A stretch of DNA of 64,000 nucleotides from Tricharina praecox (taxonomy: Eukaryota). The stretch covers positions 2,418,001-2,482,000 of the forward strand of contig NW_026250404.1 in assembly GCF_024521635.1 (NCBI RefSeq), written 5' to 3'. The position numbers and the translations under genes are program-made. The notes under the pieces were generated by a model that saw nothing but the letters and a program-made list of their open reading frames with translations, was not told the origin of the DNA and searched no databases. Positions 49,146 to 51,498 of this stretch are shown piece after piece. Each line of letters begins with the position of its first letter. Position 1 is the stretch's first letter.

Positions 49146-50446
49146 CTACAGATTCCCCCGCATGGCCTGCTCCCTCTCAATCGCTTCAAAGAGACTCCTG
49201 AAATTCCCCGCGCCGAAGCCGGAGAAGTTGTTCCGCTGAATGATCTCGATAAAGACAGTGGGGCGATCCATCAGCGGCTTCGTGAACAGCTGGAGGAGAT
49301 ACCCGCCCTCGTCAAAGTCGAGGAGGATATTCAGTCTCTCGAGCGTCTCAAAGTCCTCGAGCACCTTGAGTTTACTCATAGCCAGCCGTTTCCGCATCGC
49401 CTCATAGTACGTATCCGGCACGCTGATAAACTCGACGCCGCGCGCCTTGAGGTTCGTCACCGCCGAGATGATGTCCGTCGTCCGCAGCGCGATGTGCTGC
49501 ACTCCCGCCCCGCCAAAGAAGTCGATGTACTCTTCGATCTGTGACTTGCGCTTTCCGTGCGCTGGCTCGTTGATAGGCATCTTTACGAGCTCGTTTGGTG
49601 ACGCCATCACTACTGACTTCAAAGCCGAGAAGTCAGTGCAGATGTCTTTGTCGTCGACGCTCCAGAAGCGGTGGAAGCCGAGCGCTTTTTCGTAGCTGAA
49701 AGACGGGTCAGTGGATGAACGAACGGCAGGGAATGGGTTGCTTACTAGTCGCATGCATCCTCCATCTCGCCCCAGTCCTGGTTTCCGACGCAGTGATCGA
49801 TTGCCTCCAATTTGACTTCAGGCAGGAGCGACGGCACCGTCCTCGTCGACTTTCGGTATCCAGGGAGGAACGGGCCGCGGTACCCCCTCCGTTCCACCAA
49901 TGTGTGCGTGGTGTCTCCGTACGTCTTTACTGTCGCCATTACTACCTCGCCGTCTTTATCACTCTCGATTCTCGGCGCACTCAGTCCCACTGCGCCGTTC
50001 GCCACGGCCTCGCTGTACACAGCGTTTACATCGTCGACCTCGAACGCGACGTCCTTGACCGCGTCGCCGTGGGCAGCCAGGTGGGCATTCATCTCCCTTA
50101 GCAGCACGCGGTCTTCGTCGCTGATGTCCTCGGCGCTGGGGGACCGCAGCGGCGACGTGAGCACGAACGTGACGTGGCCGTTCGAGATCGCGTGCGAGGC
50201 GAAACATCGAGAGCCGGTCTCGAGACCTTTGTAAGCTAGTGACCGGAAGCCGAACAGCGTGCTGTAGTACGCGGCTGCTTGCTTTGCGTTGCCGACCCAC
50301 CAGTGGACGTGGTCGTAGCCGCGGTAGGAGTTGTCGGTTGGGTTGGCGTGGGCGGAGACGACGCCGCTCAGCGCATATGTCTGCCCGTTCGAGGCGAGGA
50401 TGCTGGGTTCCCGTGGAGGGGAGGAGGAGAGTGCTACTGGAGGCAT
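49146..50446 (-). CDS. hppD: 4-hydroxyphenylpyruvate dioxygenase, 2 exons, about 416 aa
   Basis: [78 protein letters not shown]; intron 49745-49696. Confidence 0.98.
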
Positions 50447-50913
50447 GGTTATCGTGCGGTAATTCGGGAACGTTTGAGACTGAATGGATGGTCAAGCAGT
50501 GTCTCGATATTGATGGAAGTAAAATCGGGGCGACGTTGGGGGAGGCGAGGAAGGAGTCAATATATCTTCATTCACGTCCCTCATCGCTCGGATACCTGAT
50601 ACCATCTTTCCCCGCCATTCACGGTCTCTTGCTGGACCGGTAGGTCATCTCGTCCGACTTGATGATGATAAGCATAGCTCTCACCTCCATTCCTATCTTG
50701 CCATCTCAAGCCGACGCTTACCGCCGGCCACCCTCGGCTTGCACCGGATGACGTCGTAACGCACCGTCCAGACGCGCAAGCAGATCCCGTGGCTTGCCGG
50801 GCAAATATAGTGTAGCCTGGACCTTCTCTAGACGCGAGCGCTCGAGAGATACAGGTACCCCTCCATTCCCCGGTGCTCCTCCAAATCCCTTCCCATATCA
50901 AACCACAGACACA
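50447..50913. promoter_or_regulatory. Putative bidirectional promoter for hppD and the TTC36-like gene
   Basis: 467 bp between divergent ATGs; several CGG/CCG triplets and the inverted repeat TTGCC-G-GGCAA at 50794-50804. Confidence 0.65.
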
Positions 50914-51498
50914 ATGACAACAGCAGCAACCCTCTCCCTCCACGACAGCAACACGCTCTCGCTCCTCTTCGACCCCGAGTCCTCACCCTCATCCACCACC
51001 GGGACCATATCCCCCTCACTACCGCCAGACCCACACTACCCATCCGCCGTCCTCCCACTCCTGCAAACCTTGGAGCGACAAGCCATCTCCCTCGCGGAAG
51101 CATCCCCAGCCGAGGCGCTCACCATCCTCTCCTCCCTGATCACCACATACCCGCAATACGCCAGCGCCTACAACAACCGCGCGCAGCTACTCCGGATCCT
51201 CTCGCACTCTTCCACCGAGATAACAGCGGACCTACGCACAGCGATTACCCTCGCTCGCCCTGCGCGGAGTATCGACGCCGTTTCACCGCTGCAGGCAAAA
51301 GTGCTGAGTAATTCGTATACGCAGCTGGGCGCGGTGCTGCTGAGCGAGGGGCGGGAGGAGGAGGCCGGGGAAGTGTTTCAGGCCGGCGCGAGGTATGGCG
51401 GCGAGGTCGCGAAGATGATGGCTGTTAAGTTTAATCCTGTCGCCAGGCTGTGTGGCGCGATTGTGAAGGAGGCGATGAGGAAGGAGATGGCGGGGTAG
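50914..51498 (+). CDS. TTC36-like tetratricopeptide repeat protein, probable HppD accessory factor (HmgX-like), single exon, 194 aa
   Basis: HDSNTLSLLFDP, LERQAISLAE, YASAYNNRAQ, DLRTAITLA, GARYG, NPVARLC match the TTC36 pattern as I recall it (DQAVLQAIFNP, ASAYNNRAQ, AARLG, NPYAALC). Confidence 0.85.
   Translation: MTTAATLSLHDSNTLSLLFDPESSPSSTTGTISPSLPPDPHYPSAVLPLLQTLERQAISLAEASPAEALTILSSLITTYPQYASAYNNRAQLLRILSHSSTEITADLRTAITLARPARSIDAVSPLQAKVLSNSYTQLGAVLLSEGREEEAGEVFQAGARYGGEVAKMMAVKFNPVARLCGAIVKEAMRKEMAG

Follow-up and report, generated by a model that had tools for sequence, protein, structure and literature searches.

The enzyme 4-hydroxyphenylpyruvate dioxygenase (HPPD; HppD in fungi, HPD in mammals) has been tied to a partner protein in two bodies of experimental work. 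In Aspergillus fumigatus, where hppD lies beside a gene named hmgX, HmgX was reported to be cytoplasmic and the cluster to be transcribed normally in its absence; the hmgX mutant accumulates 4-hydroxyphenylpyruvate, and extracts of an hmgX hmgA double mutant make no homogentisate (Keller 2011; PMC3203155). From that report onward, descriptions of HmgX present an accessory factor that is essential for HppD, lacks both a domain and a human homologue, and has no known function. In Talaromyces marneffei, deletion of hmgX abolishes both growth on tyrosine as carbon source and the formation of pyomelanin (Boyce 2015; PMC4374905). In mouse and human cells, TTC36 and HPD co-precipitate, with the VOC2 domain of the enzyme as the site of contact; TTC36 lowers the binding of the kinase STK33 and the phosphorylation of T382, and thereby prevents PELI1-dependent ubiquitylation of HPD. 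Mice that lack the gene (Ttc36-/-) show reduced HPD levels and tyrosinemia (Xie 2019; PMC6753076). A preliminary description of the DNA considered here, made from its letters alone, had stated that mammalian TTC36 binds HPD and protects it from degradation and that A. fumigatus hmgX is needed for HppD activity and had no assigned function, and these papers bear out both statements. Here we describe an hppD gene and a neighbouring gene for a tetratricopeptide-repeat (TPR) protein in 64 000 nucleotides of Tricharina praecox contig NW_026250404.1 (positions 2,418,001 to 2,482,000 of the forward strand; the window, in whose numbering all coordinates are given), and argue that the second gene joins HmgX and TTC36 into a single family.

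The two genes diverge from a spacer of 467 bp (50447..50913), which separates the ATG of hppD at 50446 on the minus strand from the ATG of the TPR gene at 50914 on the plus strand. The TPR gene (50914..51498, plus strand) is an intronless ATG-to-stop open reading frame (ORF) for a protein of 194 amino acids, and it is recorded here as a member of the hmgX/TTC36 family on the basis of homology, an AlphaFold2 (AF2) model and matching contigs. The hppD gene is read jointly from the minus-strand ORFs 49745..50446 and 49146..49754. Its first exon (49746..50446; 701 nt, 233 codons and two bases) ends two bases into a tyrosine codon, the third base of which is supplied by the second exon (49146..49695; 550 nt, that base followed by 182 codons and the stop). 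The coding sequence is thus 1251 nt long and specifies 416 amino acids and a stop. The 50 nt intron between the exons (49696..49745, minus strand) has GT..AG borders, with a GTAAGC donor, a CTGAC branch-like site and a CAG acceptor.

Contigs from four runs of separate studies were compared with the locus. X3 and X4 are recorded as RNA, whereas for X1 and X2 this is no more than a guess. Contigs of three of the four (X1, X2 and X4) contain the splice joint 49695|49746, and X1 and X2 each have one spliced hppD contig, about 1.5 kb long, that extends from 49076/49086 to 50610/50657. The TPR gene is represented by contigs at 50974-51597 (X1), 51034-51447 (X2) and 50924-51597 (X3). Between the two genes, at about 50658-50923, no contig is listed for any of runs X1-X4, and contigs of this kind cannot show transcript ends. 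The word depth in X1 and X2 is high over hppD and the TPR gene alike; such depth does not serve to rank genes. We also note a tandem repeat (48997-49075) just past the point where the hppD coding sequence ends: a 13-nt unit, which reads GAAATCCGAAAAA on the plus strand, is repeated there about five times, and many short, high-depth X1 and X2 contigs stack on this repeat, as expected for low-complexity sequence.

The product of hppD exon 1 matches Glyoxalase, Glyoxalase_4 and HPPD_N in Pfam and aligns with the solved HPPD chains 8jbw_A (E = 2e-73, residues 35-236) and 5ec3_A (9.8e-46). The exon 2 product aligns by phmmer with the same chains (8jbw_A, 2.5e-101, residues 238-419 of 419; 5ec3_A, 2.2e-77, residues 200-381 of 393), and both exons also align with the 393-residue chain 1sqi_A. 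The first exon encodes the N-terminal VOC domain together with the first strand of the C-terminal domain, and the second encodes most of the C-terminal VOC domain, ending ...REQAMRGNL. The segment FIEIIQR and one further 16-residue segment, which we take to carry the His/His/Glu iron ligands, are present. Because the exons align with solved HPPD chains along most of 8jbw_A, and with the splice joint seen in contigs, we conclude that hppD here is an intact, spliced and transcribed HPPD gene. This, and the coordinates found for both genes, confirm the arrangement given in the preliminary description, namely an intact hppD and a 194-residue TPR gene diverging from a spacer of 467 bp.

Two features of the HppD sequence bear on what follows. 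An 11-residue acidic insert at residues ~104-116 is absent from the mammalian-type chain 5ec3_A and present in 8jbw_A; it is probably the 13-residue segment that Keller 2011 put forward as the contact site for HmgX. At the other end of the protein (49146-49160), the last residue (...RGNL) falls opposite position 381 when aligned with the 393-residue chains. This C-terminus is near-invariant: of 13 intronless HppD ORFs in the metagenome loci described below, 12 end in the form ...EREQ..RGNL and the other (L034) in ...REQELRGTLV.

The 194-residue protein contains the N-terminal motif HDSNTLSLLFDPES (D11, L15, F19, P21), YASAYNNRAQ at residues 82-91 and NPVARLC at residues 174-180. All three of the hallmarks that had been claimed for it as a TTC36-like protein (D..L..LF.P, ASAYNNRAQ and NP.A.LC) were therefore located. 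In an alignment of 64 family members spanning fungi and Holozoa, D11, R89, Q91, G162 and N174 are invariant, and L15, F19, E54, S84, N88, A90, R94, D106, L107, A166, P175, A177 and C180 are conserved in at least 90% of the sequences. The motifs D-x3-L-x3-F-x-P and N-P-x-A-x-L-C at the two ends are specific to the family and lie outside the TPR repeats, and the window protein has both. A phmmer search of 1.84 billion representative sequences returned 565 matches at E<=1e-3 and 247 at E<=1e-10, numbers which place the family beyond chance.

Among 113 homologue matches the closest named sequences are those of Wilcoxina, Sphaerosporella and Trichophaea (Pyronemataceae), with 62-63% identity. Proteins that NCBI or UniRef lists as hmgX from Aspergillus multicolor, A. 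mulundensis and A. ambiguus match at 4.0e-25 (P0083), 3.0e-24 (P0089) and 4.9e-22 (P0102), with 38-41% identity over 96-97% of the query, and a Sphaerulina 'L-tyrosine degradation cluster protein' matches at 1.4e-27. The alignment indicates that HmgX of Eurotiomycetes and Dothideomycetes is longer, at about 250 residues, owing to two insertions, neither of which occurs in the 194-residue Pezizomycete form. Judged by these matches, which cover nearly the whole protein, the product of the window gene is the orthologue of HmgX.

The same protein aligns with vertebrate TTC36. BLASTP gives 3e-17 for Rhinopithecus TTC36 (28% identity, 185 amino acids) and 1e-20 for that of Peromyscus; the identities to TTC36 are 28-29%, and both alignments run at full length, from the N-terminal D..L..F.P to the C-terminal NP.A.LC. 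The HmgX of A. mulundensis is itself matched to primate TTC36 at 8e-08. When the two groups were compared as profiles, 22 HmgX sequences of Pezizomycotina against 15 TTC36 sequences of Holozoa, hhalign returned a probability of 99.9 and an E value of 1.7e-33 over 170 columns. Among the 150 phmmer matches listed are a flatworm 'Tetratricopeptide repeat protein 36' (2.4e-15, residues 6-194 to 10-192) and, at full length, proteins from a chytrid (1e-18) and from Umbelopsis (1.1e-15). A features search of the ESM Atlas, which serves as a lead only, placed TTC36-named clusters of arthropods and chordates nearest (0.94-0.95).

A profile built from four non-Dikarya members retrieves TTC36 of vertebrates, insects, Hydra and a choanoflagellate, as well as many proteins of Mucoromycota, Chytridiomycota and Zoopagomycota; no ascomycete or basidiomycete occurs among the named proteins in the 120 matches listed. 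There is thus no sign, within those named matches, of a second and slowly evolving TTC36 in Dikarya. In a maximum-likelihood tree rooted on Holozoa (a quick search with 64 rows, in which 24 of 61 inner branches are unresolved and support is by the Shimodaira-Hasegawa-like approximate likelihood-ratio test, SH-aLRT, only), the Holozoa are followed by early-diverging fungi as a grade and then by a Dikarya-type clade. All Pezizomycotina, including the window protein and Aspergillus hmgX, form one clade with an SH-aLRT of 99 on a stem of 0.85 changes per site. Since the tree tracks the species tree, and since no Dikarya are found among the named matches listed, the simplest reading is that HmgX and TTC36 form one orthologous lineage that would have accelerated in Dikarya, rather than that HmgX is a separate paralogue. 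Such an acceleration would account for the failure of BLAST to find a human homologue in 2011. On these comparisons we regard HmgX as the fast-evolving Dikarya-type branch of a TTC36 family that includes animals, a choanoflagellate, chytrids, Mucoromycota and Zoopagomycota. The orthology of HmgX and TTC36 had been proposed in the preliminary description, and the end-to-end BLASTP alignments, the profile comparison and the congruence of the tree with the species tree all speak for it. The Dikarya-type clade also takes in five unnamed metagenome proteins. Four metagenome proteins of ~190-206 residues (P0160, P0182, P0151 and P0154) form a clade of their own (SH-aLRT 98) with a small 'SW' insertion in common; this clade is placed within the Dikarya-type clade and outside Pezizomycotina, and might represent Basidiomycota or another Dikarya lineage.

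The association of the two genes was surveyed by scanning metagenome contigs with the Pezizomycotina alignment, which gave 80 hmgX loci (69 clusters at 95% nucleotide identity), all of Pezizomycotina type. hppD was sought in these by tblastn with the products of the window's two HppD exons and was found in 48 of the 80. It lies head-to-head with hmgX (upstream, on the opposite strand) in 40, and downstream on the same strand in eight (L015, L016, L034, L039, L040, L044, L046 and L063). The gaps between aligned ends in the head-to-head loci are 222-1316 nt, with one of 4260 nt. The 32 loci in which hppD was not found are nearly all contig ends. Where at least 1500 nt of upstream flank is available (44 loci), hppD is head-to-head in 37, downstream in six and absent from one, L027, which extends only 706 nt downstream. 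The linkage that had been predicted from the window alone is thus seen in 43 of 44 assessable loci. In L015 and L016 a Zn2Cys6 gene stands directly upstream of hmgX, an order resembling the 'TD-P' arrangement of Greene 2014 (PMC3914699).

In 25 long loci among these, a Pfam scan of 150 of the 181 long ORFs found homogentisate dioxygenase in six loci, fumarylacetoacetase in five, GST in six and Zn2Cys6 in four, and none of these within 6 kb in 13. In the window, none of homogentisate dioxygenase, fumarylacetoacetase, a GST-type isomerase or a Zn2Cys6 protein was found when its 45 long ORFs were compared with Pfam, a comparison from which short or heavily spliced genes could escape. Because 13 of the 25 long loci, and the window itself, contain no other tyrosine-pathway family and no Zn2Cys6 domain (Zn_clus), we consider the hppD-hmgX pair to be the constant core, with the remaining pathway genes coming and going around it. 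Keller 2011 reported that most ascomycetes have hppD and hmgX as neighbours, often around a bidirectional promoter, and Greene 2014 described the distribution of the cluster in fungi, so that the linkage as such was already published. Our survey agrees with these two papers and adds nothing beyond them on this point.

The AF2 model of the window protein, computed from the 64-sequence alignment, has a mean predicted local distance difference test (pLDDT) of 91.6 and a predicted template-modelling score (pTM) of 0.82. Its nine helices comprise residues 9-19, 47-61, 65-78, 83-95, 100-114, 125-144, 148-159, 164-172 and 175-193, which corresponds to a predicted all-helical architecture: one helix at the N-terminus followed by a linker, then three TPR-like helix pairs, and finally a pair of helices at the C-terminus. 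The model of primate TTC36 (15-sequence alignment, pLDDT 80.6, with residues 18-37 below 50) has its helices in the identical order, plus a short extra helix at 35-41 in the low-confidence linker. No solved structure of TTC36 or HmgX was found in the PDB by sequence and family-profile searches, and the window protein on its own has no sequence match there at E<=1. With Foldseek the best PDB match is Hip (4j8d, 5.8e-4), followed by CHIP/STUB1, Sgt2/SGT, the TPR1 domain of HOP and PP5; the top structures (4j8d, 8f14, 5lyp, 2vyi, 1elw and 1a17) are of the three-TPR Hop/CHIP/SGT type. These scores are weak, with E values of 5.8e-4 to 4e-3, template-modelling scores by target of 0.58-0.76 and sequence identities of 13-26% for the neighbours, and only two of the 500 matches listed reach E<=1e-3. 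The family profile matches TOM70 (2.4e-20), HOP (4.8e-13) and Hip (3.5e-11) by sequence in the TPR core only, and also SPAG1, DNAJC3, OGT, SGT, PP5 and CHIP.

The solved folds nearest by Foldseek are co-chaperone domains of the carboxylate-clamp type. In the HMMER alignment with the clamp-type TPR of TOM70, E54 and a hydrophobic residue stand at the TOM70 Lys and at the Asn of 'GN', which are presumably carboxylate-clamp positions. The Asn of TPR2 is retained in the family (N88), and the Lys and Asn positions of TPR1 are Glu and hydrophobic, respectively. Given these residues at the presumed TPR1 clamp positions, it is doubtful that the family has a classical EEVD clamp, which appears to be degenerate.

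In our view, the best overall explanation of these data, and one that we consider probable, is that the locus carries a two-gene core of tyrosine catabolism in which HmgX would act post-translationally as a dedicated accessory factor, or helper, of HppD. HmgX would bind HppD in the cytoplasm and keep the enzyme folded, stable or active, and the HppD so kept would convert 4-hydroxyphenylpyruvate to homogentisate. That the HmgX of the window binds its HppD directly we somewhat favour, and stabilization may be the activity that TTC36 and HmgX have in common. What the fungal and vertebrate mechanisms share cannot be the vertebrate STK33/PELI1 route, since fungal HppD stops at the residue that matches position 381 in the alignments and contains no counterpart of T382. 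This last observation is new to the present work.

Several alternatives have to be weighed against this interpretation. One would hold that the likeness to TTC36 is generic TPR similarity and that the adjacency to hppD is functionally meaningless. Pfam does give nothing but sub-threshold generic repeats for the 194-residue protein (TPR_17 and TPR_14, residues 60-101), and the family profile does match many unrelated TPR proteins in the PDB. Those PDB matches, however, are confined to profile positions ~39-150, whereas TTC36 aligns over the entire length, with the N- and C-terminal motifs that lie outside the repeats included; hppD is linked in 43 of 44 assessable loci, and published genetics in two fungi connects hmgX with HppD function. 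We reject this explanation, which is contradicted by the full-length TTC36 matches, the profile-profile comparison and the linkage, and which we regard as very improbable. A more serious proposal is that HmgX and TTC36 are general co-chaperones of the Hsp70 type, as in the HBP21 view of TTC36, with HppD as one abundant client whose supply of helper is boosted by adjacency upon induction. The nearest solved folds are indeed the TPR domains of Hsp70/Hsp90 co-chaperones (Hip, CHIP, SGT, HOP and PP5), the family profile finds the same set by sequence, with TOM70, HOP and Hip among its matches, a bioRxiv abstract names TTC36 as a chaperone for Hsp70, and cancer papers claim further clients. Such a factor would hardly be expected to show near-invariant linkage to a single enzyme gene (43 of 44), its knockout phenotypes as reported in fungi are limited to the use of tyrosine and phenylalanine and to pyomelanin, and the EEVD clamp looks degenerate, with E54 and a hydrophobic residue at the presumed clamp positions. 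We therefore think a general co-chaperone role unlikely.

Similarly unlikely in our judgement is the idea that HmgX is an activase, which would load or protect the Fe(II) centre or gate the C-terminal helix of HppD, so that without HmgX the enzyme would be present but inactive. The family has no conserved Cys/His cluster suited to metal handling, C180 being its only near-invariant cysteine. To our knowledge, the HPPDs of bacteria and plants function without any such factor. In mice, moreover, loss of TTC36 lowers the amount of HPD protein through ubiquitylation (PMC6753076). The published A. fumigatus experiments fit both readings, in that hmgX hmgA extracts make no homogentisate at all and transcripts are normal, while the level of HppD protein is not reported (the terms Western, antibod-, protein level and stability have no occurrences in PMC3203155). 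The C-terminus ...REQA.RGNL, which is strongly conserved in the 13 intronless ORFs and lies next to the site of vertebrate T382, would also suit an activase that acts on the C-terminal helix.

The interpretation of HmgX as a dedicated helper of HppD has its own difficulties. The published protective mechanism involves a kinase and an E3 ligase and has no fungal counterpart at T382, and the case for binding between the two proteins of the window comes from homology and published genetics. A 419-residue HPPD that is very close to that of the window, 8jbw_A, was solved as a single chain, an indication that the folding of an enzyme like this may need no partner; no paper on this structure was found. 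The mammalian TTC36 and HPD genes lie on different chromosomes. Boyce 2015 found the deletion of hmgX to be milder than that of hpdA in macrophages and suggested that in certain conditions the need for HmgX is only partial. Papers on cancer and kidney assign to TTC36 other partners (Hsp70, c-Myc and YBX3), so that the family may not be dedicated to HPPD. A prediction of one HppD-HmgX pair from the survey (L006; HppD of 420 and HmgX of 250 residues) with ESMFold2, run without alignments or controls, scored 0.00 and gives no answer either way.

A wider form of the helper interpretation is that TTC36/HmgX is an ancient chaperone dedicated to HPPD and already paired with it in the opisthokont ancestor, the STK33-PELI1 switch having been added later on top of a protective contact made directly with the enzyme near its conserved C-terminal '...EQ..RGNL' helix. 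We put this forward tentatively, as a possibility that we would not yet call probable; an ancient opisthokont partnership stands on two experimental anchors, the mouse and two Eurotiomycetes. If it were true, fungal hmgX mutants would lose HppD protein, HmgX would be replaceable, at least in part, by TTC36 from an animal or a chytrid, TTC36 would be a candidate gene for unexplained hypertyrosinemia, and it would be a useful co-expression partner for eukaryotic HPPDs.

The 467-bp spacer is a candidate bidirectional promoter. When it was aligned with the spacers of three related loci (L001, L002 and L003, with HmgX proteins 78% and 68% identical to that of the window), three conserved blocks stood out amid diverged sequence. 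The first, CATCTCGTCCGACT (50646..50659), is identical in the window and all three loci; it is unique in the window, and none of 100 shuffles gives a match. The second (50710..50740) consists of GCCGACGCTTA followed by a stretch rich in CCGG/CGG, CCGCCGGCCACCCTCGGC, and the third is CGGATGACGTCGT (50745..50757). The cores of the second and third blocks occur once each in the window and, among the 80 loci, only in L001-L003. We note these footprints as candidate shared regulatory sites that seem to be lineage-specific, because they are found only in the three closest of the 80 loci. It may be that 50710-50757 holds Zn2Cys6 (HmgR-like) and bZIP-type sites, which we infer from the sequence of the blocks.

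In the surroundings of the pair, a P450 gene (46438-47962, plus strand) stands beside the 3' end of hppD, and a carboxylesterase gene (41290-42781, minus strand) lies further on; Pfam identifies glycosyl hydrolases, an MFS transporter and others elsewhere in the window. In the closely related locus L002 a P450 gene (985-2786) is also found beside the 3' end of hppD, and since the window and L002 both show it, the order P450-hppD-hmgX appears to be kept among these Pezizomycete relatives. L002 also contains an ORF for a MULE-type transposase about 3 kb beyond hmgX. At 21587-26297 the window contains two long plus-strand ORFs (796 and 757 amino acids, stop to stop) with no Pfam match at E<=1e-3.

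The link between HmgX and TTC36 is in our opinion real and useful, but it is partly implicit in database names. One and the same A. mulundensis record bears the name 'protein hmgX' at NCBI and the name 'Tetratricopeptide repeat protein 36' in UniRef; HmgX-type proteins of Monascus, Endocarpon, Aplosporella and Phyllosticta bear the TTC36 name in UniRef, and one of Pseudocercospora is called TTC36-like at NCBI and UniRef alike. In a literature search that reached few subscription journals, hmgX and TTC36 were not found together in any one paper, nor was any relevant report found that ties TTC36 to fungi or Aspergillus, or hmgX to tetratricopeptide proteins. The 'TTC36' of PMC7844877 is a strain name and not the protein, and the literature matches for hmgX with tetratricopeptide concern HMGXB genes. 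The words fungi, yeast, homolog, ortholog and conserved are all absent from the accessible text of PMC6753076, and in the papers from 2025-2026 that were examined hmgX appears only as a cluster gene.

The locus itself adds a member to an already published hppD-hmgX module. Its value lies in bringing together experiments from two separate fields and in giving rise to predictions that can be tested. Fungal genetics would point independently to HPPD as a conserved client of TTC36, and the mouse work offers HmgX a concrete mechanism, the protection of an enzyme from loss; because fungal HppD has no T382 tail, the conserved mechanism would be simpler than the kinase/ligase axis. Practical angles include the formation of pyomelanin by fungi, the heterologous production of eukaryotic HPPDs for inhibitor work and the genetics of tyrosinemia.

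Compared with the A. fumigatus hppD-hmgX pair (PMC3203155), the window has the same genes in the same divergent orientation around a shared spacer and the same protein family, and its HppD carries what is probably the extra segment of the N-terminal domain that Keller 2011 called ascomycete-specific. The two differ in the length of HmgX (194 residues, against about 250 in the Aspergillus type, whose two insertions are missing here) and in their setting, as no gene like hmgA, fahA, maiA or hmgR was found among the 45 long ORFs of the window, hppD has a P450 gene at its side, and the fungus is a Pezizomycete. With the TPR domains of the co-chaperones Hip, CHIP, SGT, HOP and PP5 the window protein has in common the '(Y)xNRAxxx' motif of the TPR2 helix, but its N-terminal helix and its C-terminal NP.A.LC helices have no counterpart in them. 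With mammalian TTC36 (HBP21) the homology extends over the whole length and the predicted order of helices is alike, apart from the one extra short helix in the primate linker. The STK33-T382-PELI1 mechanism described for mammals cannot apply to the HppD of the window, which ends at the residue aligned with position 381. The consequences of losing either protein nevertheless resemble one another in the published accounts: whether TTC36 or hmgX is lost, HPPD function fails and tyrosine or 4-hydroxyphenylpyruvate builds up.

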